Assembly (NCBI GenBank): GCA_964016885.1
Contig: OZ024754.1
Span: 15,314,001 to 15,378,000 of the forward strand
From: Eledone cirrhosa
Lineage: Eukaryota
Length of the DNA stretch: 64,000 bases
Reading direction: 5' to 3'
Every line of letters begins with the position of its first letter. Positions within the stretch are counted from its first letter, which is position 1. A program made the translations under genes and the position numbers. The notes under the pieces are model-generated. The model made no database searches. It was not told the origin of the DNA and saw nothing but the letters and a program-made list of their open reading frames with translations. Shown piece after piece: positions 8,533-42,407 of this stretch.

Positions 8533-8586
<54 letters not shown>

Positions 8587-8847
8587 TTTCTTTATTAACC
8601 ACAAGGGTTTACATAAAGTAGACATTAAGGACAGTGCAGGACAATGCAGGACGGTACAAATGGGCATTTCTGCGTGTAAAAAAAACAAAAACAGAGGATG
8701 TAACAAAAATAACAATGAAAATAACAATGAAAAATTCCCCAATAGGGGGGAGACTTCGGAGGGACATTTGTGGAGAAAGCCCAGTAAAAAGCCACAATGA
8801 CCCTGACCACCAAGGCAAGTGCCCTCTCCCAGTTTTCCACCTTTAGT

Positions 8848-11800
8848 TTACAGATATATACTCAGAGTCGGCCCATTCACTCGGGCCATTCTTGCTTCTC
8901 TCACCCATCTTTCAACAAAATGCTGGGAAGAGAGCACTTCCTTCTCTACTCTGATTTTCCTTTTCAAATGAAATTTGAAAAAGTCAATCAGAGCATCACC
9001 GAAGAGGTAAGTGCTCGTCTTCAGCCCTTTCAAACGTGTCCACCATACTATCTCTTTCGCCATGGCCACCAGACAGATAAAAACTGCCTGCCCTTCCCGG
9101 CTAAAGGAGGAGGGCGGGGCAATCCTCACGATAGACTCAGATGATAGCTGGATCCGTCCTAAACGCGACAGCAGGTGTTCGACATAAACCCACAAGTCAG
9201 CAATTTTCGGACACTGGACGAGTGCGTGCAGGACGGTTTCGTCGCCCTGCGCGCATCTCGGACATGCCCGGCTGACGGCACCTCCATGCCTGTAGAGTTT
9301 ATCCCGAACTGGCAAGGCTCCTCGGTAGCACTGCCAGGCCAGAGATTTCTGGAAGTTGTCCATAGGCCCCGGCCCGAAAGTTCTTCCGAAGAGATTGGCT
9401 AGTTGATTTTCGTCGACGCCTAGAGTTTCCCCAAGTACGTCGTCGCTCTTCCCCTCCACTAATCCTCTATAGAACGCCAAGGTGGAGTTTCCACCGATCA
9501 CATTGCCCGATTGGTCGAGGGCTGTGAGCGCCTGAAGACATTCCAGTCTCCAGGCGCTCCCTCTCGGTCTTCGCTTGACCCAGGACTGCAGCTCCGTCAA
9601 GGAAACGAGCTGGGGAAAAACGCGTCTAGCAAACGGCGACCACACCTGATCACCGTCGAGGAAGAGGTGGAGATGTCGTAGCCTGAGCGCGTGCCTGCGC
9701 ATCATCAGCCACGGCATGCCCAGCCCTCCACGTAGCGGGTGTTGACAACAGATGGACCGCCTGACCATCGGAGCACGTCCCTTCCACAAAAAGCGAAAGA
9801 GCAAACGCTCCAGCGCAGTCAGGCGAGGCTTAGGACAAGGTACGACGGTTAGGCGGTAGCAGATGACAGACGCGATGTACGCGTTAGCCACCTCCGCTCG
9901 ACCTTTCAGGGATAGCTTCCTCTCCGCCCATTTCTGGGTGAGAGAAGCCACCCTGCTCGTCACCTCGTCCCAGTTTTTGTCCGTCTGGAGGTCCGGGCCG
10001 AACCAGACCCCTAGCAATTTAACCGGTCCGTCCGTCCAGCGCCCGACGACGCTGTTGGACGGCATGGACCTGCCTCTCCAGGTGCCGAGCTGCAGGCCCA
10101 CTGACTTTTCCTGGTTGATCATTGCTCCTGTCACCGCTTCGTATTCTCTTAGTGTAGTGCCGATCGCCTCGATGTGTTTGGCGTTCGACACCACTACGGT
10201 GACATCGTCCGCATATGCTGACACGGATCTTCCGCATCCTAGTTCGCGCGGGACTCCCCTCAACGTCTCCAGTTTGTGCAGTAATGGCTCGAGAGTCAAT
10301 ACGTACAAGAGGGACGAGAGGGGACATCCTTGGCGGACCGAGCGCATGATGTTGAACGGTTCCGACAGGTGACCGTTCACTCTCACCACAGAGCAGATGT
10401 CGCTGTGCATGGCAGCGATCCAGCCTCTGAAGACGGGCCCAAAGCCAGCCGCCCTCAGGACTGCCGCTAGGTAACGATGGTCGACCCTATCGAAAGCTTT
10501 CGACTGATCTAAATTGATCAAGGACCCACCCGTGCCAGGTTCCCTAGCTACCCTCTCTACGATGTATCGCATGAGGTGGAGGTTGTCGTGGATGGATCTG
10601 TCGGGAATGGCGCATGTCTGCGCCTCTCCCACCAGACCACCAACGACAAGCGCCAACCTCTTTGCTAGCACCTTGGCCAAAATCTTAAACTCTGTGTTTA
10701 GCAGAGTTATGGGCCGGAAATTGTCTATGTTATCCCCCTTGTTCGGATCCTTTCTCAGCAGTGCCACCGCTCCTCGGCTCACAGAACTGGGAATTCTCCC
10801 GTTCTGTTGCCAGTTGCAGTAGACGTCCGCCAAGAGGCCTCCGAACAAGTCTGGCATCTGTACGTAAAGTTCATAGGGCAGACCATCCAAACCAGGCGAT
10901 TTACCCCTTGTGCAGCCAGTCATTGCCTCCCGTATTTCAGCGGCTGTTATCGGCTTTTCGCAACACCTCGCCTCAGTGGCCGAGAGCCGCGGCAGTCCGT
11001 CGAGGTAGACACTAAAGTCCATCCCTCTACCCGGCCCCCCGCTGCCCCCGAACAGCTGAGCGAAGTGTCGCTGAAAAGCTTCACACATTTGCCCGGGATC
11101 GAGTAGCATGCGCCCGTCGTGGTCCACCAAAGACCGGATCGTGGCTTTGTTGCCACGACGCGCCTCCGCCACTCGGGCCCATTGAACGGCTTTCGTCCCC
11201 TCGTGTCTGAGAGCACGCACCCTAGCTCTGACAACGCAGCCTTCGTGATTTGCATTGAAGAATTGGTCAAGGGCCAATTTCGCCGCAAGCACGTCGGTCG
11301 CAATGCCTTTGCTAAGCGCCTCGTCTAATTTTCTAACTAGTTCTCCCTCTGCTCTATTTTTCTCTATTGCTAAAGCCTTACTAAACCTAATCGATTCTAT
11401 TCTAATCGCTCTTTTCAGAGCAAACCACCACTTGTTGTTGACGATGGCCCCCGTCAACGCCCGCTTAACTAGTTCGCTAATCCGGTCTCTGTAGGCCTTG
11501 CGCGCTGGTAAGGACGCGTTTAGCTTCCAGTAGCCGGGTCCTCGTCTATGAAGCCTATCTAAGTCAAGCACACAGGTCACGAATTTGTGGTCCGTGTAGC
11601 TGACTATCTTGAATTGTGGACAGCCTATGCTAGACCTATCTATTTCCCTACAAAATACTCTATCTAGATATGATCTGGATGACCCTATGCGGTTTGTCCA
11701 AGTCCACATTGGCACATTCGGGAAATCCAATCGGTACCTGTCAGACAGTTCAAAACGCCTGAGCAGGTTGGTGAGGCTCTTGCACCCTCCACCCCTATCC

Positions 11801-12267
11801 GCTAATCCCACACAGTCCCAGCGTGCATCTAAGATCCCGTTCCAGTCGCCCACTAACACTAAAGAGCGGGACGTTCCAAGAAAGGTCTCCAGACGCCGGA
11901 AGAAATCAGGCCGCCCTGCTCCTGTCGGGGCATAGACGGCCACTAGCCTGAAAGCTTGCCCGTCTCCGCTGGTCACGTCCAGCACCACCAGCTTACCCTC
12001 TGGGTCCAGGAAGATGGCCCGTATGGCGAGATCCAAACCTCTCCGAAAAAGCACAGCAACTCCTCCACCCGATCCAGGACGGCTGGGAGATGCGTACACA
12101 TCGTAGCCGCCGAAGATCGGTGCGAAGGCCCGTGCTTCGGAGATTCTGGTCTCGCTGATGGCCACTACATCTATGTTTAGTGACCTGAGGTCGTTGAGCA
12201 GGTGACCCTGCTTCCATGACGACCCCAAGCCACGCGCATTTATGCTGCCTATTCTGAGTGAGGTCAT
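8848..12267 (-). CDS. LINE ORF2: APE endonuclease + reverse transcriptase + C-terminal zinc finger (1139 aa, intact)
   Basis: APE motifs SINARGL, SETR, VYAP, GDWN, LDR, TDH. RT motifs KSPGLDG, FRPITLLN, DQSKAFDRV, RQGCPLS, YADD. C-terminal CPRC..ETVLHALVQC. Confidence 0.95.
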   Translation of the reverse strand: MTSLRIGSINARGLGSSWKQGHLLNDLRSLNIDVVAISETRISEARAFAPIFGGYDVYASPSRPGSGGGVAVLFRRGLDLAIRAIFLDPEGKLVVLDVTSGDGQAFRLVAVYAPTGAGRPDFFRRLETFLGTSRSLVLVGDWNGILDARWDCVGLADRGGGCKSLTNLLRRFELSDRYRLDFPNVPMWTWTNRIGSSRSYLDRVFCREIDRSSIGCPQFKIVSYTDHKFVTCVLDLDRLHRRGPGYWKLNASLPARKAYRDRISELVKRALTGAIVNNKWWFALKRAIRIESIRFSKALAIEKNRAEGELVRKLDEALSKGIATDVLAAKLALDQFFNANHEGCVVRARVRALRHEGTKAVQWARVAEARRGNKATIRSLVDHDGRMLLDPGQMCEAFQRHFAQLFGGSGGPGRGMDFSVYLDGLPRLSATEARCCEKPITAAEIREAMTGCTRGKSPGLDGLPYELYVQMPDLFGGLLADVYCNWQQNGRIPSSVSRGAVALLRKDPNKGDNIDNFRPITLLNTEFKILAKVLAKRLALVVGGLVGEAQTCAIPDRSIHDNLHLMRYIVERVAREPGTGGSLINLDQSKAFDRVDHRYLAAVLRAAGFGPVFRGWIAAMHSDICSVVRVNGHLSEPFNIMRSVRQGCPLSSLLYVLTLEPLLHKLETLRGVPRELGCGRSVSAYADDVTVVVSNAKHIEAIGTTLREYEAVTGAMINQEKSVGLQLGTWRGRSMPSNSVVGRWTDGPVKLLGVWFGPDLQTDKNWDEVTSRVASLTQKWAERKLSLKGRAEVANAYIASVICYRLTVVPCPKPRLTALERLLFRFLWKGRAPMVRRSICCQHPLRGGLGMPWLMMRRHALRLRHLHLFLDGDQVWSPFARRVFPQLVSLTELQSWVKRRPRGSAWRLECLQALTALDQSGNVIGGNSTLAFYRGLVEGKSDDVLGETLGVDENQLANLFGRTFGPGPMDNFQKSLAWQCYRGALPVRDKLYRHGGAVSRACPRCAQGDETVLHALVQCPKIADLWVYVEHLLSRLGRIQLSSESIVRIAPPSSFSREGQAVFICLVAMAKEIVWWTRLKGLKTSTYLFGDALIDFFKFHLKRKIRVEKEVLSSQHFVERWVREARMARVNGPTLSIYL

Positions 12268-12302
12268 GTTTAAAATAGAGTGGAAAAGATGGGAAAGACC
12301 AC

Positions 12303-14375
12303 TTACCGTACTTTTGGTAGAGGAGGGATGGTTTTTACATCCCTTTTCACTTGATCGTCTGGTGAAGGGACCGTTGAATCGTCCCTTCGGCTGGTCGTCG
12401 GCTCTTCTAAGAGAATGTCTGAATATACTCTTCGATTAATGGTTCCTCCTAGGTCCCTGAAATCACCAACAGCGTTGGGGAATTTCGTTTTAATGTTTGT
12501 GTATTGTTTCTGTGCTATTTTTAGCAGTCTTATGTTAGTTGGCGTTTTGATTGGTGCTGGTATTATGTAGTCCTGTTGTGAAATGTCTGTGTGTTCAATT
12601 ATGTAAGTCATTAGTTTCTTGTTGTGTGTGTTTATTGCCGTGCATTTGTTTTTCTGGGGGTGGGGTGTGGTTCTGCTATTTTCTTGTCGTTGTTGCTGGG
12701 TGTGTGTGTTTTGTTGTTGTGTTTGCGATGTTGGTGCTTGTGGTGGTGGTGTTGAAGGTGTTGTTGGCGGTGGGGTTGTCGCCGGTGGTGATGGTGGTGC
12801 TGGTGTGGGTGGTGATGGTGTTGGTGGTGTTGCTGCTGTGGGTCTCTTTGCAGTAGACTTTACCCTTTTCTCATTTCTTTCCTCCCTTTTCAAAGGCGAC
12901 GATGCGCTGCTTCTGCGTTTGTGCCTTCTTGAGACCTTTTGCCATCCCTCTCCCACCTCACACTCCATGTCTGATTCTGTAAGGTCGGGGAGGGGTACCA
13001 GCTCCACTCTTTCACTTGTTGTTGTTGGTGATGTTTGCACTGGAGTCTCTGTTGCAGCTGCATTTGGTATTGCTGTTGTTGTTGTTAATATTTCCACTGC
13101 TGCTGCTGTCTTTGATTTCCGTGGAGTGGGTATGGGTGCCACGGACCTATCGTTCCTGGTTGCCGCTTGTCCTGTTGCTGGTAGCCGTGGAACCGGATTC
13201 GGGAGGAGGGGGGTTTTCTCCTTTCTCATGGTCTTCTCGTTGCAGAAGGCCCTGAGGTGAGTCTTCGATCCACAGCGAAAGCATTTCGGGCGTTTGCCCT
13301 CAACACTTATGGGCAGTTGAGTGCCGTTATCGAAGTCTATCACATCCGGGATAGCTTCGATGCACTCCTGGTTGGTTTGGATTAGCATCTCAATGGAGGA
13401 GCCGACCCAATCTTCTCTTACTTTTTTCTGTACTTGCAGTACAGTTGTTTTGTCCTCGATTCCGACGAGGACAGACGCGGCCAGCCAAGAAGGGGTCATT
13501 CCGGGGGGGACGTGGGTCAGTTTGACCCTCACAATTTTTTGCCCGCAGTAGGAGGGCACCAACACCATTTCCTCGCTCCTTAGGGTCACTACTGATTGGG
13601 CCTTTGCCTCCTGGGGTGTGGCAAAAAGTACGTCTACGGTGGCGTATTTTTTGCCTCGGGTGATGTGCGTTTTCCTCTGCCACACAGACCCCAAGGCTTT
13701 TTGTATTTGGGCCTCTGTGGCTCTTTCCACCCTACGGGATTTTGTACTTACTGTACGGTACGTGACCGTACAGTGCTCTTGGGTTTCGAAAAAATTTTTC
13801 GCTGCCTTGCAGATTGCTCGGTGTCCGTTCTTTGTCACCATCTTCTTCGCTTCCTCTAATTCCTCATTTGTTATGAGGATTGTTTCCAGGTTTTTCGCAA
13901 TACCTGCAAATGAGATTGGTTTTTCTCTGCTGTTGTTGTTGTCGTCAGAGCTGCTGGTACTTTTGTTGTTGCTGCAGGTACTACGACTACTGCCTCCGCC
14001 GCTGTTGCTGCTAATGCTGTTGTTGTTTATGCTGCTGGTGATGCTGTTGCGGCTGCTACTGTTGTTTTCATTGTCACTGTTGCTGTTGTTATTACGGCTG
14101 CTACTGCTATTATTCCTGACGTCAGACGAATGAACTGGGTTTTCGTATTTCCCGCACACCTGTTTCGTCGCTGTCGTCGTCGTCGTGGAGAAACCTTGCA
14201 CGCTTTGCACGAGACTTTTATTTTCTTTCGTCGCTTGCGAAAGAGAAGGGAGGGAGAGAGACACATTTAAAGAAGGGAGGGAGAGAGACAATCTTCTCTC
14301 TGCTGTAGTGATGATTGAGGAAGAAGAAGACGGAATGAGTGGGAGTGACGTATGAAATTTCTTTTTGGTAGCCAT
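12303..14375 (-). CDS. LINE ORF1: gag-like protein with CCHC zinc knuckle
   Basis: Open from ATG 14375. CFRCGSKTHLRAFC (CX2CX4HX4C), with S/N-rich and P/T-rich low-complexity regions. Confidence 0.88.
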   Translation of the reverse strand: MATKKKFHTSLPLIPSSSSSIITTAERRLSLSLPSLNVSLSLPSLSQATKENKSLVQSVQGFSTTTTTATKQVCGKYENPVHSSDVRNNSSSSRNNNSNSDNENNSSSRNSITSSINNNSISSNSGGGSSRSTCSNNKSTSSSDDNNNSREKPISFAGIAKNLETILITNEELEEAKKMVTKNGHRAICKAAKNFFETQEHCTVTYRTVSTKSRRVERATEAQIQKALGSVWQRKTHITRGKKYATVDVLFATPQEAKAQSVVTLRSEEMVLVPSYCGQKIVRVKLTHVPPGMTPSWLAASVLVGIEDKTTVLQVQKKVREDWVGSSIEMLIQTNQECIEAIPDVIDFDNGTQLPISVEGKRPKCFRCGSKTHLRAFCNEKTMRKEKTPLLPNPVPRLPATGQAATRNDRSVAPIPTPRKSKTAAAVEILTTTTAIPNAAATETPVQTSPTTTSERVELVPLPDLTESDMECEVGEGWQKVSRRHKRRSSASSPLKREERNEKRVKSTAKRPTAATPPTPSPPTPAPPSPPATTPPPTTPSTPPPQAPTSQTQQQNTHTQQQRQENSRTTPHPQKNKCTAINTHNKKLMTYIIEHTDISQQDYIIPAPIKTPTNIRLLKIAQKQYTNIKTKFPNAVGDFRDLGGTINRRVYSDILLEEPTTSRRDDSTVPSPDDQVKRDVKTIPPLPKVR

Positions 14376-14606
14376 GTTTTTTTGTTTAAAATGAAATTTT
14401 GGGTACAAAACCCCAATAACTGGTTATTTAACCCCGAAGGGCCAAATAACGGACAGAAAGACCCCTCTCACGAGGAGGAGGGTGTCTTTATCAACAATTT
14501 GGTTCAAGTTTTAAACAATTTACAATTGTTTTAACGGTTAAAAATTACTATACCTTACAGAGCCGAGCCTCCGTCAACCATGGCATTCAATAATAATAAT
14601 AATAAT

Positions 14607-14732
14607 AAATGAAACATGTGTCAGTGAAAACGAGGTAAACTATAATAGTAATAAATGAAACATGTGTCAGTGAAAACGAGGTAAACTATAATAGTAATAA
14701 ATGAAACATGTGTCAGTGAAAACGAGGTAAAC
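14607..14732 (+). repeat. 46-bp tandem triplication at the 5' junction of Dong copy 2
   Basis: AAATGAAACATGTGTCAGTGAAAACGAGGTAAACT(ATAATAGTAAT) three times. Confidence 0.9.
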
Positions 14733-15822
14733 TGTAACACTTCGAATCCCAGGGTTGGGGCGGAATCACTGGCAACAGAACAAATTAAAGAAAGGAGCGA
14801 AAAAGTGGAGGGGGTGCATGCTCAGGATGAAACTCCAAATGAAAATAATGAGATCGTAAATGATAAAGAAATGAATGAGAATGAACTTGCCAACTTGAAG
14901 GATGAAATTATGATCGAATGGATGAAAATGAAAGAATCTGACATGGGGCAACGAGACACCCTCCCTAAGATCCAGAACTCCAAACAGAACCAAAAGATAA
15001 TACACAAGACTAACATAATTCTCAAAAACATTATCATCACAAACAAACTAAACATTACTGATTTAAATCATCTCTATTATGCATCGGCTAAAGTCACCAC
15101 TCACTTATGTGGAGGGAAGATGAAAAAACAAAGGAATTCCCACAAGAAATCTACTTGCCAAGAGAACATCAATCGCCAAATAAACCTTCTCCGATCTGAC
15201 ATAGAAATTTTAACAAACTATAAAGTAGGTGAACATGTTAAACAAACTAAACTTAGAAAATTGAAAAAAAAGTACAGTATAAAATCAACATGTGACATAG
15301 ACATGCTGATAGAAATAATCAAACAAAAAGTGTCGGCCAAAGCTGCTCGTATAAGGCGCTTTGAAAAACGATCTAGATTCTATAAGGACAATAATATGTT
15401 CAAAAACAACCAAAGAAACTTCTACAGAAAAATTGGTAAGTCAACAATAACTGCTAAATCAATACCACCCAAGGAGGAAGTGCAAGAATTCTGGGAAAAG
15501 ATCTGGGCCGAAGAAAAAGTTCATAACATACATGCCCCATGGATAGACAGACAAATGAAAGATACAGCTCACCTTGAGGAACAAATATGGGAAAATATAA
15601 CAGTTGAACAGTTGCGCTTGGCTCTAAGAAAAACCAGCAAATGGAAATCCCCAGGAAAAGACAAAATACAAAACTTTTGGATAAATCCCTTCACAGAGTC
15701 TCATGAGCTGTTAGCCCAACTTTACAATGAAATAGTTAAGGAGCCAGAAAAGATACCATCATGGCTAGTTAACGGCATTGGTGATAACTCGTATGAACAT
15801 AAAGCAAGATAAATGCGACTGT
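14607..15822 (+). mobile_element. second copy of the R4/Dong element, 5'-truncated and internally deleted
   Basis: Near-identical to about 5247-6270, then jumps to the 3' UTR (8491-8532 equivalent). Flanked by (TAA)n on both sides. Confidence 0.92.
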
Positions 15823-15843
15823 AATAATAATAATAATAATAAT

Positions 15844-16911
15844 CTATCTACAACATGTTCCACAAGAGGAGTGATGTCGATAGACTCTACTTAAGGAGAT
15901 CTGAAGGTGGAAGAGGTCTTATCAGCATAGAGGACTGTGTTCAGATGGAGAAAAACAACCTACACAAATACGTGACTGGTAGTAAAGAGCCAATGCTCAG
16001 AACTGTACTGAAGGAGAGGGCAATAGGCCAGGGGATGTCCAAGGAGGAAATAACATAAAGGAGAAAGAGCAGCCTTCAGGAAAAATCCCTTCATAGTACC
16101 TTCTTTGAGAAAACTAAATTTAGAGATCCACAGACATGGAACTGGTTGAAAAGAGGAGACCTTAAAAAGGCTACAGAAGGAATGTTAATGGCTGCGCAGG
16201 AGCAGGCCCTCAAAACGAAGTGGTTGAAACACCATATTTACAAGGAGGAGGCTAGCCCACTGTGCAGGATCTGTGGAGAGAGAGAGGAGACTGTGGCTCA
16301 CATTGTATCCGAGTGTAAACACCTAGCCCAGATTCACTATAAGGGCTGGAGACATGATGTGATGGGCAGGGTGATCCACTGGCACCTATGCAAAGTAAAC
16401 AATTTACCACATTCTGAGAAATGGTATGAGCATAAGCCAGAGGCGGTGATAGAAAACGATCAGGTGAAGGTGCTGTGGGATTTTAGGATACAGACGGACA
16501 AGAAACTGGAACACAATAGACCTGACCTGGTGGTTGTGGACAAAGAAAAAAGATCGTGCCTGATTGTGGATGTGGCCTGCCCATTCGACACGAGAGTGCA
16601 AGAGAAGGAGAGGGAGAAAATTAACCGATACCAGGACTTAAAGTGGGAGGTAAAAAGGATTTGGAACAGCCATGAAGTCAAAGTGATCCCGATTGTCATA
16701 GGCGCACTAGGGACTATCTCAAAAAGTTTCCAGGAATGGTTAAAGAAAATTGGCCTCTTCACGCTTTTTGGAACGGTTCAAAAAGCATGCTTGCTGGGAA
16801 CAGCAAGAACCCTCCGATACGTCCTGAATATCTGAGGCTGCAGGTAGTGGCTTGATATTCATTTCAACAAACTTTCCAATTAACTAACATCAATGACTGA
16901 GACTCAAAGAG
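15844..16911 (+). mobile_element. 5'-truncated R4/Dong-like element of a second family
   Basis: DVDRLYLRRSEGGRGL, in-frame stop at 16056-16058, CRIC..ETVAHIVSEC, RHD, RPDL, KINRY. (TAA)n on both sides. Confidence 0.88.
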
Positions 16912-16944
16912 TAATAACAACAATAATAATAATAATAATATTAA

Positions 16945-17077
16945 TAATTGTTTCTACTTTTGGCACAAGGCCAGCAATTACCCAATGCAATACTGGTACT
17001 TTATTTTATCGACCCCGTAAGGATGAAAGGCAAAGTCAACCTCGGCGGGATTTGAACTCAGATCGTAAAGGGACGTA
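16945..17077 (-). mobile_element. tRNA-derived SINE, 5'-truncated
   Basis: Matches the 3' two-thirds of the SINE at 29248-29437. Confidence 0.85.
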
Positions 17078-17085
17078 ATAATAAT

Positions 17086-19995
17086 ATTAATAATGTCCGT
17101 TTACAATTGTTGCGCTACTCCATATAATGTTTCTGGATCAAATGATTATAGATCATTATTGATCTGGTTCAGTTGAAGATAATTAGTTTAGTTTACCACC
17201 TGCAAGAACCCTCCACACAATATCCTGCTGGACTCGTTTGAGAAAGATCTATTTAACTTCGTCAGGAGCATTAACTTCAAAAAGCATTATAGACACAAGA
17301 ATAATTTCCTCACAAAATTAGCAACAACTATAAAAACATTTAAAGATAGCCACCTCTTACATGTTATGTCTGACAAAACTAAAAATCTATACACCATGAC
17401 TCCTGAAACTTACAACTCTTTCCTTCTTAAGGAACTTAATAAAAACTATTAAAAAAACTATACCCTCCAGTGTAAACTTACTTAACCGAAAAGCCCAGGC
17501 TTTGGTTAAGGACTTACATCTGGATAGATTTACCCACCCTTATGTACCTACAACCCCAAGGTTTTCTCTCAGAGATCACAAACCAAACTTTATAGAGAAC
17601 CCATCTATTAAGCCTAATGCCCAACCACATCTGACTTGGATCGTATCAGTAAGAACATCCCTGGGCTACGAGATGATATCACCTACAAGCTGTGGTCCAA
17701 CACCGGCCAAGTCATTAGATGGTTCTCCGATCTAAGGTCCAAGGAATCTATGAGGTTCCTCAAATTTGACATTGACAGCTACTACGCTTCAATAAAGCAT
17801 TAACCCTAGCCAGGACCAACTCTGACATAACCAATAATGAGATTAACATCATACTTATGGCTAGGCAGACCATCATTGAATTCAACGGAGCACTCTGTTC
17901 TAGAAAAGACAGAACAGACAACTTTGACATCACTATGGGCTCAAGCGACTCTGCGCAAATCACTGATTTAGTTGGAATTTACCTATTACATAACATCAGA
18001 GATGAAATCCAACCCTTGCAAGGCGGAATATATAGGGACGACGCCCTATTTGCAGTCCACAATTGCACTAATCGAGGCATTGACTTGCTCAAAAAACAAT
18101 TGCATAGATTCTTTTAAAATAACGGTCTCTCTATCACTATCGAGCCGAACCATAAAGTAGTAAACTTCCTGGACGTTACCCTAGATCTTAACAATAACTT
18201 ATATTACCCTTATCATAACCCAGGTGAAATACTTACATATATTAGCCCACGCTCTAACCACCCACCGGCAGTCATCAGAGCAGTAATCAAATCTATCTCG
18301 CATAGGATCTCCATGCTATCAACAAATGAGGAGATATTTATAAACCATGCGGCATATTATAATAAGGCTCTTTCTGAATCTGGTTATGAACAGTGCATTT
18401 ACTACATACCTAAATGCCATAACACAGCACTTCACCACAACCATAATAAACTTAGCACTAGAACTAGAAATACCTTAGCATATAGCCAGATTCGCCGGAA
18501 TTTTAGCAGTAACAGCACCTATACAGGGAACCTTAACGGTGGCAGTGGCCTACTTCCCACTCCAAGTAGCAAACTAAAAATCAACCCTAGAATAGGAATG
18601 AGCATGGGATGACAAATAACAAATGCCCAGGTAATAATAACCCTATGAAGGCCCCTACCAACTCCACTAGAACCCTTAGAAGGAATAGGCCTAGAAATAT
18701 CACCTGGCTTAACCCCTCAGTATCATCTAATCTAGCCACTAATATCCCTAAACGCTGCTTCTCTATCCTATCTAAACCCCCCCCCCCCCAACCATAGATA
18801 TTATAAACTCTTTAATAAAAACAACATTAAAATCTCATTCTCCACAACACCTAACCTAGCTAGCCACATCGCATTCAGTAACCATCATAAGCTAAGACAG
18901 TATAACTCCCACACCGCGGTACCACCACCCCTATCAAATACACCACGCCACTACACCAATACTTACTCTAGTAGCACACCTCCCCCATCTAATCCTTCTA
19001 GCACGCACCAACCGCATTGTTTAAACAACCCTACTCTCCATAACCGCAGAAGTAACTGCAACTGCCGTTACCCTAATGCATGCCCACTAAATGGACATTG
19101 TCTGACACCCAATATAGTTTATAGGTGCACAGTTAAAACTGCTTCGCATACCAGCTCCTATATTGGCTATACCTCTAACCCTTTTAAGGTACGCTATAAC
19201 GCGCACTCTTTTTCTTTCCGAGACCCTAACAACAGATGTTCGACATATCTAGCTAGGCTCATCAAAAACCTTAAATTAACCAACATTGAACACTCACTAA
19301 CAAGGGATATCTTGGCTAGGGCCCAACCGTTCAATGGACGAAGAAACTCTTGTGACCTCTGTCTTACCGAAGCATATTACATAACTCTATCACGACCTCT
19401 ACCGATTAACGATAGAACGGAGGTTACTATTAGCTGTCAACATCGGAGGGCTAATTCCTTCGCCAACTGAATATTTGACCAAACATAGTCATCTAGTCCC
19501 ATTTTTACTTATAGCTAATAAGTTAAATAGTTATAGCTAACTTAGATGATTATAAGTTACCTCCCTTACATTGTCTCTCAATTAAAAAATTAGCACTTCT
19601 TAACTATAAACTACCCACAATTTCTAATTTCTCAAGGAGTTATTTCCCTTGAAACCACCCTCTAATTAGTAAAGTAAATATGTCCATTAGCGGCCATCTT
19701 GTTACCCATAGGCAGATCTCACACAATGCAGCCTCGACAGAAGAATACTGCTCGACTATGGCAGACAATAGATATACCCAGGACAACATAGTGAAATACC
19801 AATATATGGAACATTACATTCATCTAACATTCTTTCTTTATTTTAATTTATATTCCTTTTGAAGTTCCGATGAGCTGCTAATTGTACCTAAGTTAATTAT
19901 CTTCAACTGAACCAGATCAATAATGATCTATAATCATTTGATCCAGAAACATTATATGGAGTAGCGAAACAATTGTAAACGGACATTATTAATAT
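17086..19995 (+). mobile_element. Penelope-like element (degenerate RT + GIY-YIG) with inverted 5' pLTR segment
   Basis: Fragments FDIDSYYASI, MGSSDSAQITDLVG, GIYRDDAL, NFLDVTL, SNHPP, CNC..CPL..C, NIVY..SYIG, CDLC..E. 17086-17185 is the reverse complement of about 19893-19995. Confidence 0.88.
19864..19980 (+). ncRNA. hammerhead-like motif (CCGATGA core variant) in PLE 3' pLTR
   Basis: GTT-CCGATGA-GCTGCT...80 nt...AGTAGC-GAAAC AATT GTA-AAC. Confidence 0.65.
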
Positions 19996-20014
19996 TATTA
20001 TTATTATTATTATT

Positions 20015-20112
20015 ATTATTCTCTACATTCCTTACATTAAACTAAAACTATGTTGACAATCTTTTAATAATGTCTTCCTTGTGAAATTTGTGGTCTTGTT
20101 TTGCTTAACTAA

Positions 20113-20118
<6 letters not shown>
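20015..20118 (-). repeat. dispersed ~100-bp repeat, copy 2
   Basis: Reverse complement of 3975-4080. Lies between (ATT)n and (TA)n. Confidence 0.85.
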
Positions 20119-20165
<47 letters not shown>

Positions 20166-20390
20166 GGATTAACAAATAATAGTTAAATGCAGTCCACTTA
20201 GGTGAAGTCCAGTTATGGTATTCCAGGTAGTGGATGATATTAACGCTTGGCTTGGTTTGACTCAACAAGGCGTTTTCATAGTGATGCTGCGGGTGTGCTG
20301 TAATTCCTATGTTGTAAACACTTGGAGTAATAATAAATCAGGAAAGAAGGTTTACATGGTTTGCTATACAAAAAAGTTTTTAATCACATA

Positions 20391-20496
20391 GCTTACATTT
20401 GTTTCACTGAACTGGTAAGTCTAGAGATCGCTATCCGCCTAATTTTGCGTCACTCGATCGCCAATACAGAATTATAACCAGTCAGATCTTCGGAGC
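20391..20496 (-). ncRNA. hammerhead-like motif (CCGAAGA core), left-arm copy
   Basis: Reverse complement of 22775-22880. Confidence 0.55.
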
Positions 20497-20849
20497 ATGC
20501 GAGCATGAAGAAAATACACAGGCAAGAAAAGAAAAGAAAATATGGAGTAGTTATGGCATTCAATTAGAACAATAACAACAATTACAACAATGCTATCAAT
20601 AAACTATTTAAGGAGACCCTGACATTACTTAGGTGGGGGGTATATAATGTATCTAATGTTACGGCGTGAAAACCAGCTGTCATAAGGCAAAAAGTATCGT
20701 AGTGTGTACCAATTTTAAATTATAAAGATAAGCTAGTTTTTACAGTCTTTCTCTTCATCTTCAACAGTATACATGAGTGGGACCACGGTCAAAGCTCAAT
20801 TGTAGTAGAGTTAAAACAGAGGTTAACGAATTAATATACGCATATATCT

Positions 20850-20948
<99 letters not shown>

Positions 20949-21261
20949 AATATATATACACATATATGTGTACATAGACACATACATACACATCAATATA
21001 CACTCGTACAAAAATATATATACATGCAAAGAGAAAAGCGTGCTAATTGTAATTATGGCAAAAAGAAGGTAAAGTAACATTGTAGTAGTGAAATGAGAAA
21101 AACTAGGATCTAGGATCAAATGATTGCAGCAGCTGAGAAGGAGTAAGATTGTTGGCAGATGAGGTATTTACAGACAATTGTGTGGTATAGACTTGTGAAG
21201 GAAATAGTATACTTAATGAATATATTTCTGTGGGTAGTAGGTATCCTAATTTAAAGCTATG

Positions 21262-21621
21262 TTATGTTGGTTTGAATCTTATGAATTTAGTGGCTATTCT
21301 ATGTCTGCAGAAGATAGATCTTTCTAACTTATTATTAAGTAGCCTTTTAACATTTCTAAGGATATACAATAGCTCAAGATCACACAGCCCGCAATAGGAC
21401 ATCCCTGTACTATAGGTTTTAGCAGCCGACAACTTCGACCAGTTGATAGTGTAGCTAGCGTTGCTGTCCTTCAATTCCCATATTTTTCTGGCGAGGGTGG
21501 TGGAACCCATAAGTGCACGGTTTTTCATAGAGTGCCTGTGCACATACCATCTTTTCTTAAAAGAACCCGCGGTGGATCCTATGTAATTCCAGGTGGAGTT
21601 ACCCGAGATGACAGTGCACAT
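21262..21621 (-). pseudogene. GIY-YIG endonuclease fragment (PLE), left arm
   Basis: NYIGST..FKKRW..H..S...STTLARKIWELK...CGLCDLE...CRH. Confidence 0.8.
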
Positions 21622-21632
21622 GTTCGAGCCTG

Positions 21633-22013
21633 GTGTACATGTGCACTGTCATCTCGGGTAACTCCACCTGGAATTACATAGGATCCACCGCGAGTTCTTT
21701 TAAGAAAAGATGGTATGTGCACAGGCACTCTATGAAAAACCGTGCACTTATGGGTTCCACCACCCTCGCCAGAAAAATATGGGAATTGAAGGACAGCAAC
21801 GCTAGCTACACTATCAACTGGTCGAAGTTGTCGGCTGCTAAAACCTATAGTACAGGGATGTCCTATTGCGGGCTGTGTGATCTTGAGCTATTGTATATCC
21901 TTAGAAATGTTAAAAGGCTACTTAATAATAAGTTAGAAAGATCTATCTTCTGCAGACATAGAATAGCCACTAAATTCATAAGATTCAAACCTCCGTTAAT
22001 CGAACCAACATAA
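21633..22013 (+). pseudogene. GIY-YIG endonuclease fragment (PLE), right arm
   Basis: (SL)VYMCTV...NYIGST..FKKRW..CGLCDLE..CRH. Confidence 0.8.
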
Positions 22014-22326
22014 CATAGCTTTAAATTAGGATACCTACTACCCACAGAAATATATTCATTAAGTATACTATTTCCTTCACAAGTCTATACCACACAATTG
22101 TCTGTAAGTACCTCATCTACCAACAATCTTACTCCTTCTCAGCTGCTGCAATCATTTGATCCTAGATCCTAGTTTTTCTCATTTCACTACTACAATGTTA
22201 CTTTACCTTCTTTTTGCCATAATTACAATTAGCACGCTTTTCTCTTTGCATGTATGTATATTTTTGTACGAGTGTATATTGATGTGTATGTATGTGTCTA
22301 TGTACACATATATGTGTATATATATT

Positions 22327-22418
<92 letters not shown>

Positions 22419-22774
22419 CGTAGATATATGCGTATATTAATTCGTTAACCTCTGTATTAACTCTACTACAATTGAGCTTTGACCGTGGTCCCACTCATGT
22501 ATACTGTTGAAGATGAAGAGAAAGACTGTAAAAATTAGCTTATCTTTATAATTTAAAATTGGTACACACTACGATACTTTTTGCCTTATGACAGCTGGTT
22601 TTCACGCCGTAACATTAGATACATTATATACCCCCCACCTAAGTAATGTCAGGGTCTCCTTAAATAGTTTATTGATAGCATTGTTGTAATTGTTGTTATT
22701 GTTCTAATTGAATGCCATAACTACTCCATATTTTCTTTTCTTTTCTTGCCTGTGTATTTTCTTCATTCTCGCAT

Positions 22775-22880
22775 GCTCCGAAGATCTGACTGGTTATAAT
22801 TCTGTATTGGCGATCGAGTGACGCAAAATTAGGCGGATAGCGATCTCTAGACATACCAGTTCAGTGAAACAAATGTAAGC
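22775..22880 (+). ncRNA. hammerhead-like motif (CCGAAGA core), right-arm copy
   Basis: GCT-CCGAAGA-t-CTGACTGGT...ACCAGtTCAG-t-GAAAC AAAT GTA-AGC. Confidence 0.55.
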
Positions 22881-22932
22881 TATGTGATTAAAAACTTTTT
22901 TGTATAGCAAATCATGTAAACCTTCTTTCCTG

Positions 22933-23009
<77 letters not shown>

Positions 23010-23373
23010 CGTGCGTATGTATGTATATATTATGTATATGTCACCTAATCTGTCACCGAATCACACTCTATTTGTCCTCATTTGCGTGAGAGCAAATAAA
23101 TACACATAATTAATTATGATATGGGACTTTATTATTTATATTATTATTATTATTATTGAATGCCATGGTTGACGGAGGCTCGGCTCTGTAAGGTATAGTA
23201 ATTTTTAACCGTTAAAACAATTGTAAATTGTTTAAAACTTGAACCAAATTGTTGATAAAGACACCCTCCTCCTCGTGAGAGGGGTCTTTCTGTCCGTTAT
23301 TTGGCCCTTCGGGGTTAAATAACCAGTTATTGGGGTTTTGTACCCAAAATTTCATTTTAAACAAAAAAACAAC

Positions 23374-25477
23374 ATGGCTACGAAAAAGAAATTTCATACG
23401 TCACTCCCACTCATTCCGTCTTCTTCTTCCTCAATCATCACTACAGCAGAGAGAAGATTGTCTCTCTCCCTCCCTTCTTTAAATGTGTCTCTCTCCCTCC
23501 CTTCTCTTTCGCAAGTGACGAAAGAAAAGAAAAGTCTCGTGCAAAGCGTGCAAGGTTTCTCCACGACGACGACGACAGCGACGAAACAGGTGTGCGGGAA
23601 ATACGAAAACCCAGTTCATTCGTCTGACGTCAGGAATAATAGCAGTAGCAGCCGTAATAACAACAGCAACAGTGACAATGAAAACAACAGTAGCAGCCGC
23701 AACAGCATCACCAGCAGCATAAACAACAACAGCATTAGCAGCAGCAACACCAACAACAACCACAGCAACAGCGGCGGAGGCAGTAGTCGTAGTACCTGCA
23801 GCAACAACAAAAGTACCAGCAGCTCTGACGACAACAACAACAGCAGAGAAAAACCAATCTCATCTGCAGGTATTGCGAAAAACTTGGAAACAATCCTCAT
23901 AACAAATGAGGAATTAGAGGAAGCGAAGAAGATGGTGACAAAGAACGGACACCGAGCAATCTGCAAGGCAGCGGAAAAATTTTTCGAAACCCAAGAGCAC
24001 TGTACGGTCACGTACCGTACAGTAAGTACAAAATCCCGTAGGGTGGAAAGAGCCACAGAGGCCCAAATACAAAAAGCCTTGGGGTCTGTGTGGCAGCGGA
24101 AAACGCACATCACCCGAGGGAAAAAAATATGCCACCGTAGACGTACTTTTTGCCACACCCCAGGAGGCAAAGGCCCAATCAGTAGTGACCCTAAGGAGCG
24201 AGGAAATGGTGTTGGTGCCCTCCTACTGCGGGCAAAAAATTGTGAGAGTCAAACTGACCCCCCCCCCCCCCCCCCCCGGAATGACCCCTTCTTGGCTGGC
24301 CGCGTCTGTCCTCGTCGGAATCGAGGAGAAAACAACTGTACTGCAAGTACAGAAAAAAGTAAGAGAAGATTGGGTCGGCTCCTCCATTGAGATGCTAATC
24401 CAAACCAACCAGGAGTGCATCGAAGCTATCCCGGATGTGATAGACTTCGATAACGGCACTCAACTGCCCATAAGTGTTGAGGGCAAACGCCCGAAATGCT
24501 TTCGCTGTGGATCGAAGACTCACCTCAGGGCCTTCTGCAACGAGAAGACCCTGAGAAAGGAGAAAACCCCCCTCCTTCCGAATCCGGCTCCACGGCTACC
24601 AGCAACAGGACAAGCGGCAACCAGGAACGATAGGCCCGTGGCACCCATACCCACTCCACGGAAATCAAAAACAGCAGCAGCAGTGGAAATATTAACAACA
24701 ACAACAGCAATACCAAATGCAGCTGCAACAGAGACTCCAGTGCAAACATCACCAACAACAACAAGTGAAAGAGTGGAGCTGGTACCCCTCCCCGACCTCA
24801 CAGAATCAGACATGGAGTGTGAGGTGGGAGAGGGATGGCAAAAGGTCGTAAGAAGGCACAAACGCAGAAGCAGCGCATCGTCGCCTTTGAAAAGGGAGGA
24901 AAGAAATGAGAAAAGGGTAAAGTCTACTGCAAAGAGACCCACAGCAGCAACAACACCAACACCATCACCACCCACACTAGCACCACCATCACCACCGGCG
25001 ACAACCCCACCGCCAACAACACCTTCAACACCACCACCACAAGCACCAACATCGCAAACACAACAACAAAACACACACACCCAGTAACAACGACAAGAAA
25101 ATAGCAGAACAACACCCCACCCCCAGAAAAACAAATGCACGGCAATAAATACACACAACAAGAAACTAATGACTTACATAATTGAACACACAGACATTTC
25201 ACAACAGGACTACATAATACCAGCACCAATCAAAACGCCAACTAACATAAGACTGCTAAAAATAGCACAGAAACAATACACAAACATTAAAACGAAATTC
25301 CCCAACGCAGTTGGTGAATTCAGGGACCTAGGAGGAACCATCAATCGAAGAGTATACTCAGACATTCTCTTAGAAGAGCCGACGACCAGCCGAAGGGACG
25401 ATTCAACGGTCCCTTCACCAGACGATCAAGTGAAAAGGGATGTAAAAACCATCCCTCCTCTACCAAAAGTACGGTAA
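23374..25477 (+). pseudogene. LINE ORF1 of copy B, disrupted
   Basis: Frameshift in an A-run at about 24121-24128, expanded C-run at about 24257-24277, CAA>TAA at 25085-25087. CCHC knuckle retained. Confidence 0.85.
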
Positions 25478-25512
25478 GTGGTCTTTCCCATCTTTTCCAC
25501 TCTATTTTAAAC

Positions 25513-28500
25513 ATGACCTCACTCAGAATAGGCAGCATAAATGCGCGTGGCTTGGGGTCGTCATGGAAGCAGGGTCACCTGCTCAACGACCTCAGGTCAC
25601 TAAACATAGATGTAGTGGCCATCAGCGAGACCAGAATCTCCGAAGCACAGGCCTTCGCACCGATCTTCGGCGGCTACGATGCGTACGCATCTCCCAGCCG
25701 TCCTGGATCCGGTGGAGGAGTTGCTGTGCTTTTTCGGAGAGGTTTAGATCTCGCCATACGGGCCATCTTCCTGGACCCAGAGGGTAAGCTGGTGGTGCTG
25801 GACGTGACCAGCGGAGACGGGCAAGCTTTCACGCTAGTGGCCGTCTATGCCCCGACAGGAGCAGGGCGGCCTGATTTCTTCCGGCGTCTGGAGACCTTTC
25901 TTGGAACGTCCCGCTCTTTAGTGTTAGTGGGCGACTGGAACGGGATCTTAGATGCACGCTGGGACTGTGTGGGATTAGCGGATAGGGGTGGAGGGTGCAA
26001 GAGCCTCACCAACCTGCTCAGGCGTTTTGAACTGTCTGACAGGTACCGATTGGATTTCCCGAATGTGCCAATGTGGACTTGGACAAACCGCATAGGGTCA
26101 TCCAGATCATATCTAGATAGAGTATTTTGTAGGGAAATAGATAGGTCTAGCATAGGCTGTCCACAATTCAAGATAGTCAGCTACACGGACCACAAATTCG
26201 TGATCTGTGTGCTTGACTTAGATAGGCTTCATAGACGAGGACCCGGCTACTGGAAGATAAACGCGTCCTTACCAGCGCGCAAGGCCTACAGAGACCGGAT
26301 TAGCGAACTAGTTAAGCGGGCGTTGACGGGGGCCATCGTCAACAACAAGTGGTGGTTTGCTCTGAAAAGAGCGATTAGAATAGAATCGATTAGGTTTAGT
26401 AAGGCTTTAGCAATAGAGAAAAATAGAGCAGAGGGAGAACTAGTTAGAAAATTAGACGAGGCGCTTAGCAAAGGCATTGCGACCGACGTGCTTGCGGCGA
26501 AATTGGCCCTTGACCAATTCTTCAATGCAAAGCACGAAGGCTGCGTTGTCAGAGCTAGGGTGCGTGCTCTCAGACACGAGGGGACGAAAGCCGTTCAATG
26601 GGCCCGAGTGGCGGAGGCGCGTCGTGGCAACAAAGCCACGATCCGGTCTTTGGTGGACCACGACGGGCGCATGCTACTCGATCCCGGGCAAATGTGTGAA
26701 GCTTTTCAGCGACACTTCGCTCAGCTGTTCGGGGGCAGCGGGGGGCCGGGTAGAGGGATGGACTTTAGTGTCTACCTCGACGGACTGCCACGGCTCTCGG
26801 CCACTGAGGCGAGGTGTTGCGAAAAGCCGATAACAGCCGCTGAAGTAAGGGAGGCAATGACTGGCTGCACAAGGGGTAAATCGCCTGGTTTGGATGGTCT
26901 GCCCTATGAACTTTACGTACAGATGCCAGACTTGTTCGGAGGCCTCTTGGCGGACGTCTACTGCAACTGGCAACAGAACGGGAGAATTCCCAGTTCTGTG
27001 AGCCGAGGAGCGGTGGCACTGCTGAGAAAGGATCCGAACAAGGGGGATAACATAGACAATTTCCGGCCCATAACTCTGCTAAACACAGAGTTCAAGATTT
27101 TGGCCAAGGTGCTAGCAAAGAGGTTGGCGCTTGTCGTTGGTGGTCTGGTGGGAGAGGCGCAGACATGCGCCATTCCCGACAGATCCATCCACGACAACCT
27201 CCACCTCATGCGATACATCATAGAGAGGGTAGCTAAGGAACCTGGCACGGGTGGGTCCTTGATCAATTTAGATCAGTCGAAAGCTTTCGATAGGGTCGAC
27301 CATCGTTACCTAGCGGCAGTCCTGAGGGCGGCTGGTTTTGGGCCCGTCTTCAGAGGCTGGATCGCTGCCATGCACAGCGACATCTGCTCTGTGGTGAGAG
27401 TGAACGGTCACCTGTCGGAACCGTTCAACATCATGCGCTCGGTCCGCCAAGGATGTCCCCTCTCGTCCCTCTTGTACGTATTGACTCTCGAGCCATTACT
27501 GCACAAACTGGAGACGTTGAGGGGAGTCCCGCGCGAACTAGGATGCGGAAGATCCGTGTCAGCATATGCGGACGATGTCACCGTAGTGGTGTCGAACGCC
27601 AAACACATCGAGGCGATCGGCACTACACTAAGAGAATACGAAGCGGTGACAGGAGCAATGATCAACCAGGAAAAGTCAGTGGGCCTGCAGCTCGGCACCT
27701 GGAGAGGCAGGTCCATGCCGTCCAACAGCGTCGTCGGGCGCTGGACGGACGGACCGGTTAAATTGCTAGGGGTCTGGTTCGGTCCGGACCTCCAGACGGA
27801 CAAAAACTGGGACGAGGTGACGAGCAGGGTGGCTTCTCTCACCCAGAAATGGGCGGAGAGGAAGCTATCCCTGAAAGGTCGAGCGGAGGTGGCTAACGCG
27901 TACATCGCGTCTGTCATCTGCTACCGCCTAACCGTCGTACCTTGTCCTAAGCCTCGCCTGACTGCGCTGGAGCGTTTGCTCTTTCGCTTTTTGTGGAAGG
28001 GACGTGCTCCGATGGTCAGGCGGTCCATCTGTTGTCAACACCCGCTACGTGGAGGGCTGGGCATGCCGTGGCTGATGATGCGCAGGCACGCGCTCAGGCT
28101 ACGACATCTCCACCTCTTCCTCGACGGTGATCAGGTGTGGTCGCCGTTTGCTAGACGCGTTTTTCCCCAGCTCGTTTCCTTAACGGAGCTGCAGTCCTGG
28201 GTCAAGCGAAGACCGAGAGGGAGCGCCTGGAGACTGGAATGTCTTCAGGCGCTCACAGCCCTCGACCAATCGGGCAATGTGATCGGTGGAAACTCCACCT
28301 CGGCGTTCTATAGAGGATTAGTGGAGGGGAAAAGCGACGACGTACTTGGGGAAACTCTAGGCGTCGACGAAAATCAACTAGCCAATCTCTTCGGAAGAAC
28401 TTTCGGGCCAGGGCCTATGGACAACTTCCAGAAATCTCTGGCCTGGCAGTACTACCGAGGAGCCTTGCCAGTTCGGGATAAACTCTACAGGCATGGAGGT

Positions 28501-28932
28501 GCCGTCAGCCGGGCATGTCCGAGATGCGCACAGGGCGACGAAACCGTCCTGCACGCACTCGTCCAGTGTCCGAAAATTGCTGACTTGTGGGTTTATGTCG
28601 AACACCTGCTGTCGCGTTTAGGACGGATCCAGCTATCAGCTGAGTCCATTGTGAGGATTGCCCCGCCCTCCTCCTTTAGCCGGGAAGGGCAGGCAGTTTT
28701 TATCTGTCTGGTGGCCATGGCGAAAGAGATAGTATGGTGGACACGTTTGAAAGGGCTGAAGACGAGCACTTACCTCTTCGGTGATGCTCTGATTGACTTT
28801 TTCAAATTTCATTTGAAAAGGAAAATCAGAGTAGAGGGGGAAGTGCTCTCTTTCCAGCATTTTGTTGAAAGATGGGTGAGAGAAGCAAGAATGGCCCGAG
28901 TGAATGGGCCGACTCTGAGTATATATCTGTAA
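25513..28932 (+). CDS. LINE ORF2 APE-RT (1139 aa, intact)
   Basis: Same motifs as 8848-12267 with only scattered amino-acid differences. Confidence 0.95.
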   Translation: MTSLRIGSINARGLGSSWKQGHLLNDLRSLNIDVVAISETRISEAQAFAPIFGGYDAYASPSRPGSGGGVAVLFRRGLDLAIRAIFLDPEGKLVVLDVTSGDGQAFTLVAVYAPTGAGRPDFFRRLETFLGTSRSLVLVGDWNGILDARWDCVGLADRGGGCKSLTNLLRRFELSDRYRLDFPNVPMWTWTNRIGSSRSYLDRVFCREIDRSSIGCPQFKIVSYTDHKFVICVLDLDRLHRRGPGYWKINASLPARKAYRDRISELVKRALTGAIVNNKWWFALKRAIRIESIRFSKALAIEKNRAEGELVRKLDEALSKGIATDVLAAKLALDQFFNAKHEGCVVRARVRALRHEGTKAVQWARVAEARRGNKATIRSLVDHDGRMLLDPGQMCEAFQRHFAQLFGGSGGPGRGMDFSVYLDGLPRLSATEARCCEKPITAAEVREAMTGCTRGKSPGLDGLPYELYVQMPDLFGGLLADVYCNWQQNGRIPSSVSRGAVALLRKDPNKGDNIDNFRPITLLNTEFKILAKVLAKRLALVVGGLVGEAQTCAIPDRSIHDNLHLMRYIIERVAKEPGTGGSLINLDQSKAFDRVDHRYLAAVLRAAGFGPVFRGWIAAMHSDICSVVRVNGHLSEPFNIMRSVRQGCPLSSLLYVLTLEPLLHKLETLRGVPRELGCGRSVSAYADDVTVVVSNAKHIEAIGTTLREYEAVTGAMINQEKSVGLQLGTWRGRSMPSNSVVGRWTDGPVKLLGVWFGPDLQTDKNWDEVTSRVASLTQKWAERKLSLKGRAEVANAYIASVICYRLTVVPCPKPRLTALERLLFRFLWKGRAPMVRRSICCQHPLRGGLGMPWLMMRRHALRLRHLHLFLDGDQVWSPFARRVFPQLVSLTELQSWVKRRPRGSAWRLECLQALTALDQSGNVIGGNSTSAFYRGLVEGKSDDVLGETLGVDENQLANLFGRTFGPGPMDNFQKSLAWQYYRGALPVRDKLYRHGGAVSRACPRCAQGDETVLHALVQCPKIADLWVYVEHLLSRLGRIQLSAESIVRIAPPSSFSREGQAVFICLVAMAKEIVWWTRLKGLKTSTYLFGDALIDFFKFHLKRKIRVEGEVLSFQHFVERWVREARMARVNGPTLSIYL

Positions 28933-29192
28933 ACTAAAGGTGGAAAACTGGGAGAGGGCACTTGCCTTGGTGGTCAGGGTCATTGTGGCTTTTTACTGGG
29001 CTTTCTCCACAAATGTCCCTCCGAAGTCTCCCCCCTATTGGGGAATTTTTCATTGTTATTTTCATTGTTATTTTTGTTACATCCTCTGTTTTTGTTTTTT
29101 TACACGCAGAAATGCCCATTTGTACCGTCCTGCATTGTCCTGCACTGTCCTTAATGTCTACTTTATGTAAACCCTTGTGGTTAATAAAGAAA

Positions 29193-29245
<53 letters not shown>

Positions 29246-36530: not shown

Positions 36531-36775
36531 AGATAGATAGATTTCTTTATTAGCCACAAGGGCGCAACAAGAAAGGGGACAATACAAAGACATGCCGGGG
36601 ATTTTACATACAGTCGTGTAAAAAATATAAAAACAAACAATTTCAACAATCGAAATCCCCAATAGGGGGGAGGCGCCACAAATGGGTTGTTTAATACCCC
36701 GTCGATAGAACAACCCTCAACTCGAGGAGCGTGTTGTGCAAGTGCTCCTTTCTTCCTTTTGCTCTCTTCCTCAAC

Positions 36776-42347: not shown

Positions 42348-42407
<60 letters not shown>

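Follow-up and report, generated by a model that had tools for sequence, protein, structure and literature searches.

A 64,000-nucleotide stretch of the Eledone cirrhosa genome (assembly GCA_964016885.1, contig OZ024754.1, positions 15,314,001 to 15,378,000 of the forward strand; hereafter, the window) contains two full-length copies, A and B, of a long interspersed nuclear element (LINE) family that encodes an APE endonuclease and a reverse transcriptase (RT). Our analysis confirmed that A and B arose by separate insertion events and that the high-copy APE-RT LINE family to which they belong lies in (ATT)n at a constant phase. On the sequence comparisons assembled here, between this ATT family and relatives that use TATC-type targets (the TCTA, or 'GATA', group), it appears fairly probable that the APE endonuclease selects the ATT site while a few repeat bases on the ends of the element RNA set the exact register, and, as part of the same judgement, that the difference between ATT and TATC targets arose once, at the base of the two family groups, and not between the two families present in the window. 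The two ATT-family copies comprise the following features.

8585..14588, minus strand: copy A, full-length ATT-family LINE of 6004 bp, both open reading frames (ORFs) open
12303..14375, minus strand: ORF1 of copy A, 690 aa, with one CX2CX4HX4C knuckle
8848..12267, minus strand: ORF2 of copy A, 1139 aa counted from Met, with APE, RT and zf-RVT
11899..11937, minus strand: APE loop of copy A, VYAPTGAGRPDFF, equivalent of the L1-EN Tyr115-Asn118 loop
11659..11706, minus strand: APE hairpin of copy A, WTWTNRIGSSRSYLDR, equivalent of L1-EN betaB6-betaB5, with Ile aligned to Pro197
14589..14606, minus strand: (ATT)6 at the 5' junction of copy A
8533..8584, minus strand: (ATT)17 at the 3' junction of copy A, doubling as the (TAA)n end of an adjoining restriction-like endonuclease (RLE)-type LINE
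23158..29194, plus strand: copy B, full-length ATT-family LINE of 6037 bp, ORF1 in two frames
25513-28932, plus strand: ORF2 of copy B, open
23139..23157, plus strand: (ATT)6 at the 5' junction of copy B
29195..29244, plus strand: (ATT)16 at the 3' junction of copy B; the adjacent downstream sequence is a dispersed short repeat, presumably of the short interspersed nuclear element (SINE) type from its resemblance

Copies A and B are 98.4% identical across an alignment of about 6.0 kb and have in common the 5' junction ATTATT/GAATGCC and the 3' junction AAAGAAATC/ATTATT (the slash marks the junction), while outside the junction repeats their flanks are unrelated. Three of 12 full-length copies on contig C1 are closer to A (99.0-99.2% identity) than B is, which rules out B as a local duplicate of A and supports separate insertions in the same repeat phase, as the initial annotation of the window had proposed. 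Pfam matches in ORF2 (PF03372, PF00078 and PF13966) correspond to an N-terminal APE, an RT and a zf-RVT domain, and the AlphaFold model of the copy A APE (mean predicted local distance difference test score, pLDDT, 94.7) has L1-EN as its best fold match, with a template modelling (TM) score of 0.84. ORF1 of copy A matched no Pfam family; its Atlas leads were CCHC/ZCCHC3-like clusters (0.87-0.91), weak leads with recognition below threshold. The nearest named protein to ORF2 was from Argonauta hians (74% over the RT), and no named Tx1 reference was found among the protein database matches; the Tx1 label of the window families rests on architecture. In the Tx1 clade, two ORFs are expected, with the RRM/zf-CCHC type of ORF1 in place of Transposase_22 (PMC5203782).

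Exact-pattern searches of the genome, for which reversed-pattern controls gave 0 at both ATT-family ends, found 6284 exact 3' ends and 1604 exact 5' ends of the ATT family. The 3' ends were followed by NN/AT in 6125 of 6284 cases (97.5%), a count that tested two target letters only and leaves at most 159 of 6284 ends of any other kind, and the 5' ends were preceded by ATTATT in 1581 of 1604 cases (98.6%), so that a true preference for (ATT)n holds genome-wide. At both ends, as well as in the 45% of truncated 5' junctions described below, the target is more frequent than the level of >20% of flanks at which a family has been called target-specific (PMC4494074). The 3579 genome-wide 3' ends of the TCTA-a family were followed by NN/TATCT in 2974 cases and by NN/ATTATT in none, and 0 of 70 sampled ATT-family loci lay in TATC; the genome-wide flank comparison thus revealed no cross-use of repeats between the ATT and GATA families. 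The sampled loci (70 ATT and 50 TCTA-a) came from the first 72 Mb of contig C1 and include tandem neighbours, and they are therefore not fully independent. The median run at ATT loci was 9-10 ATT units, and 9 of 70 loci had no more than one such unit at the 3' junction; TCTA-a repeats were short, with a median of 2 TATC units, 10 of 50 loci without any and 0-1 unit at 21 of 50 junctions, so that the target of the GATA family is a short TATCT motif and not the long microsatellite that had been supposed. Two variable bases separate AAAGAAA from the target in all families; in the ATT family these were TC in 37 loci, AC in 20, GC in 10 and others in 3 (n=70). Some copies had flanks of other kinds, namely TCTA-d copies with (ACCT)n flanks (L137-L138, C1:19036000-19055800, and L151), L154, which is followed by (TC)n, and L133, which is preceded by (TCTG)n; these flanks possibly represent further target drift.

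Truncated copies allowed target repeats to be told apart from repeats that belong to the element. The 70 ATT loci yielded 14 full-length and 22 truncated copies once 17 that extended beyond the locus boundary and 17 others (16 that carry a second 5' half and 1 unchained) had been removed; the 50 TCTA loci, of which 11 likewise extended too far, gave 7 full-length and 32 truncated copies. Upstream of the truncated copies, ATT was present in 10 of 22 ATT-family but 0 of 32 TCTA-family copies and TCTA in 15 of 32 TCTA-family but 0 of 22 ATT-family copies (Fisher p 3e-5 and 1e-4). Since truncated copies carry no 5' head yet keep this cognate split, the repeats are targets and not just tails; that is, they pre-exist as insertion targets. 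In addition, 32 truncated copies had a base close to the 3' junction that departs from the repeat, and in 10 of them this variant recurred upstream (shuffled control: mean 2.0, maximum 6), although 3 of these 10 duplications rest on 4-base words; clear duplications of 14-17 bp were found in L162, L070, L086, L201 and L205, and in the first four of these they span repeat plus unique bases. The 5' truncations (22 ATT and 32 TCTA copies), the target duplications and the lack of long terminal repeats together constitute the signature of target-primed reverse transcription.

The comparison with the TCTA group started from the full-length copy in the window, for which the features are as follows.

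36540..42351, minus strand: full-length TCTA ('GATA')-family copy used as comparator
36776-40219, minus strand: ORF2 of the comparator, 1147 aa
39848-39892, minus strand: APE loop of the comparator, VYAPTGQSQSRPDFF
39608-39655, minus strand: APE hairpin of the comparator

ORF2 of the ATT copy is colinear with that of the comparator, as had been stated, although 'highly similar' was a generous description of 68% identity with 1% gaps (61% over the APE and 75% over the RT). A 3' motif shared by the families occurs 25,818 times genome-wide (reversed control, 99), and its first 30 loci, counted by eye, comprised 14 followed by ATT, 10 by TATCT, 3 by satellite and 3 by TAT[AT]. Long copies were aligned copy by copy, and trees of 13-24 rows, with near-duplicates and two gappy rows left out, were built for a panel of about a dozen young APE-LINE families with 59-90% APE identity and three targets; these include the ATT families a1, a2, b, c1 and c2 as well as, on the TCTA side, families a, b, c, d, f (two copies) and X and a TC-type copy (a single copy). 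One branch parts the ATT from the TCTA families (supports of 81/74 in the APE tree, 99 for TCTA in the RT tree and 93/84 in the C-terminal tree; the whole-ORF tree was made without supports). An approximately unbiased (AU) test on 13 rows rejected a clade of the window's two families (p 2.1e-59), which, with 61% identical APEs, are neither 'sister' nor 'closely related' families as they had been termed in the initial annotation. Target class followed APE group in all sampled ATT (a1, a2, b, c1, c2) and TCTA (a, b, c, d, f) families. The RT of ATT-c is 80-82% identical to that of TCTA-a and 78-80% to that of ATT-a, while its APE is 71-73% identical to that of ATT-a versus 65-67% to that of TCTA-a.

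Under the reading we favour, the element RNA would probably read past AATAAA into the downstream repeat, and the APE would nick the AAT-reading strand, with the element end AAAGAAA-NN joined to ATT. The freed 3' end would then pair with a few RNA bases and prime reverse transcription, with no poly(A) tract remaining; the 5' end of truncated copies would be joined after a staggered cut, with a duplication of about 14-17 bp, and in full-length copies the repeat head would pair with upstream ATT, always giving ATT/G. Junction sequences suggest that RNA-borne repeats set the insertion register: all five ATT families start ATT/G, and degenerate TCTA-like 5' heads are common to TCTA-a full-length copies. 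The selection of the site itself is better assigned to the endonuclease because, in about a dozen families that include different 5' halves, the target goes with the APE group, because pairing can be just 3-4 bases, and because published results place specificity in the endonuclease; Tx1L-EN nicks almost exclusively its own target in vitro (PMC1950540), and an endonuclease swap between SART1 and TRAS1 swaps the target (PMC7265360). The 3' junctions with at most one ATT unit further indicate that no long tail is obligatory.

The principal alternative is an RNA-guided process, in which the APE nicks AT-rich simple repeats loosely, only those nicks that pair with the RNA-borne repeat (3' tail, 5' head) are productive, and the target passes on through the RNA, the APE differences being incidental. 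The lack of poly(A) at the junctions despite an AATAAA about 6 bases from the end, the strict phase at both ends and the 5' heads just described all fit such a process, as do two full-length copies (L168 and L237) with long upstream ATT and a non-ATT 3' flank that is not duplicated. However, RNA guidance predicts frequent target changes, each started by a full-length copy at an off-target site, whereas about 12 families show one deep split and the change in family X, perhaps with that of the TC-type copy; many junctions (the 9 of 70 and 21 of 50 given above) offer only 0-1 repeat unit for pairing, and the Tx1L and SART1/TRAS1 data point to the endonuclease. We thus regard RNA guidance as possible but doubtful.

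A number of observations weigh against selection by the endonuclease as set out above. The cognate repeat is missing upstream of 12 of 22 ATT and 17 of 32 TCTA truncated copies, i.e., about half, versus about 1% of full-length copies, with some of these truncated copies being mis-chained internal deletions or lying in TTC, ACT or AT repeats, and the 3' repeat and the 5' ATTATT may be partly element-borne, which would inflate the genome-wide counts. Duplications were seen in 1 of 11 full-length versus 10 of 32 truncated copies, a difference that is not significant (p 0.24). As to target fidelity, TATCT is missing from 605 of the 3579 TCTA-a ends, some of which share a recurring AATAT[TA]A site (L088-L090, L135, L205), and L097, a TCTA-d copy, has TATTAT instead. 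The root of the RT tree falls within the ATT families (bootstrap 80), in contrast to the APE, C-terminal and whole-ORF trees, in which ATT and TCTA part, and the trees thus do not agree on the direction of the change. Family X has a hairpin identical to that of the TCTA-b copy L148 and nonetheless a changed target, which also speaks for RNA guidance. Finally, there is one ATT/TCTA change on the tree, and the correlation of residues with target hence has an n of 1, so that no one APE column can be singled out.

The initial annotation had instead ascribed the difference to sister endonucleases that switched target through a QS insert in one loop and T/V, I/S and S/T exchanges in the hairpin. The two APE differences quoted in its support are present in the translations, and the choice of loops was sound, as they align with the Tyr115-Asn118 loop and the betaB6-betaB5 hairpin of L1-EN, both of which contact bases in L1-EN-DNA structures, where Asn118, Pro197 and His198 are the only base contacts (PMC8565326). 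Among the residues named, only the I/S difference tracks target, with Ile in 8 and Thr in 1 of 9 ATT rows and Ser in 15 of 15 TCTA rows at the position of L1 Pro197. Among the families sampled, the QS insert is confined to TCTA-a, families b, c, d and f using TATC with a short loop, while T/V/A and S/T/Q vary within target classes; these were rejected as determinants. The position of Asn118 holds T in ATT and TCTA-a families and S or F in the other TCTA families. Across the whole domain, 14 columns are near-fixed and 34 disjoint between ATT and TCTA APEs, among them a near-fixed SR/CQ difference in the loop of L1 Lys70, aligned to Gly67-Lys68. Candidate determinants among the 14 near-fixed differences, as judged from the alignment, are thus the residue at the tip of the hairpin (Ile/Ser) and, in the Lys70 loop, the pair Ser-Arg/Cys-Gln. 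With a single split and this many columns, the window pair is insufficient on its own as a map of determinants; because the families are not sisters, and 61% APE identity leaves more than 90 other differences, a switch of sister endonucleases by these loop residues is quite improbable. L1-EN given the hairpin of Tx1L did not acquire the specificity of Tx1L (PMC1950540), which tempers the proposed use for site-specific insertion tools; this use is further limited as the target is present many thousands of times per genome. Least credible of all, and very improbable, is an absence of targeting, in which the repeats are slippage-made tails and heads of the elements and copies pile up by selection or recombination: many neighbours are indeed other repeat-tailed elements or tandem copies, and the flanks are not independent genomic microsatellites, but upstream of truncated copies the cognate repeat occurs and the opposite one never does, duplications hold repeat plus unique bases, and X occupies a single phase of a 72-bp unit.

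Family X (copies at C1:1573327 and C1:5627202 and 53 more, L141-L145 and L221-L256) falls inside the TCTA group, with an APE 79-80% identical to TCTA-b and 83-84% to TCTA-f. Its 3' ends lie at one phase of a 72-bp minisatellite unit in 54 of 55 copies, on many contigs, in a search whose trailing letter set slightly disfavours non-satellite flanks; copy L254 has a different 3' flank. The unit lies inside a miniature inverted-repeat transposable element (MITE) with TTAA-flanked CCC...GGG ends, which we take from these hallmarks to be piggyBac-like. All 20 of 20 full-length X copies have one 5' junction in common (three more rows were incomplete, through truncation, interruption or extension beyond the locus), the number of 72-bp units on either side varies from about 1 to 14, two arrays carry two X copies each (L224 and L252-L253), and in L251, a truncated copy, a stretch of about 75 bp that contains private variants is duplicated. 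A 65-bp duplication in full-length X was considered and found unsupported, with a distance of 5.9 within copies versus 6.2 between copies. These observations point to a spread of X by repeated retrotransposition; some composites may have spread with the MITE. X-specific APE residues cluster in the Asn118 loop, and we tentatively consider, though we think it unlikely, that X moved from TATC to one phase of the 72-bp minisatellite with its hairpin kept and its Asn118-type loop (FWAARPEYF) remodelled, loop and RNA repeat head together acting as the retargeting switch. If so, X would be a near-minimal pair for the gain of long-site APE specificity, convergent with Tx1L/Tx1D; X versus TCTA-b/f is in any case a better minimal pair than the window's too divergent families. 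Tx1L inserts in Xenopus Tx1D, a non-autonomous piggyBac element, and the crocodilian Tx1-Mar and Tx1-9_AMi insert in DNA transposons (PMC4494074). X resembles Tx1L in lying at one position inside a transposon but differs in being nested among TATC families (79-84% APE) and in having as its site one phase of an internal tandem unit.

Microsatellite-targeting Tx1-type LINEs are known from fish and crocodiles, including Kibi in (TC)n, Koshi in (TTC)n and crocodilian Tx1 families in (TTCC)n/(TTTC)n, and target shifts among relatives have been described (PMC4494074, PMC3812793). These are likewise L1/Tx1-type APE-RT LINEs that are microsatellite-specific, with related families on different units; the families reported here differ from them in their A/T-rich (ATT)n and TATC targets and in having thousands of copies, a comparison drawn on target and copy number. 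The (TC)n and (TTC)n targets of Kibi and Koshi were not matched by the window families, TTC being found upstream in 2 of 22 truncated ATT copies. For Octopus vulgaris, 13 recently active L1-Tx1 families have been reported, for which the portion of the paper covered gives no targets (PMC13282606), and PMC9115989 contains no mention of Tx1. We found no Tx1-type element targeting ATT or TATC in a cephalopod in the literature, with the limit that Repbase, Dfam, Kojima and Fujiwara 2004 and the supplements of PMC13282606 and PMC4494074 may hold such families; the targeting would thus be of a known kind, with ATT and TATC apparently new targets. The copy A APE has in common with L1-EN its fold, its hairpin length and the two base-contacting loops and is 21-22% identical to it, and in L1-EN, where base contacts are few, loop grafts (LTx, LR1) were not modular (PMC8565326, PMC1950540). 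For the question of how APE-type LINEs read and change their targets, the present panel offers thousands of young copies with clean target statistics, some of them with both ORFs open, and families that differ by degrees, which makes control by endonuclease versus RNA directly testable. With at least 6284 insertions, and with RLE-type LINEs and short repeats as competitors for the arrays it uses, the ATT family shapes the repeat landscape.

Dong elements, which use a restriction-like endonuclease, share their repeat with the ATT family, the latter differing in its N-terminal APE and in reading the opposite strand. In the window, an RLE-type LINE (RT, CCHC, PD..D..K) that ends in (TAA)n lies on either side of copy A, at 4795-8533 (plus strand) and 14607-15843 (plus strand), as two copies, a long one that contains an in-frame stop and one truncated at its 5' end, which share the array with copy A on the opposite strand; from its resemblance, we assume this LINE to be Dong/R4-like. 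For Dong itself, (TAA)n has been reported as the target (PMC3812793). The truncated RLE-type copy has at its 5' junction three repeats of a 46-bp unit (14596-14737), each with a TAA remnant, possibly as a result of repeated template jumping. A second 5' half, which starts GGCGACC and not GAATGCC, precedes ATT-family ORF2 and 3' end at 16 loci in L163-L198 (e.g., L170), an exchange of 5' untranslated region and ORF1 that left the target unchanged. Near-identical inverted stretches at 20450-20700 (minus strand) and 22600-22800 (plus strand) hold ATTGAATGCCAT, the letters of the LINE 5' junction, probably by chance or as the ends of another transposon. An abundant short, ATT-tailed, SINE-like repeat adjoins ATT arrays at 29246-29446, 16926-17078, 52693-53625 and other places in the window. 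Around the comparator, at least 5 stacked TCTA-group 3' ends of several subfamilies, one of them full-length, occupy 30321-43212 (minus strand), with (TATC)n between them.

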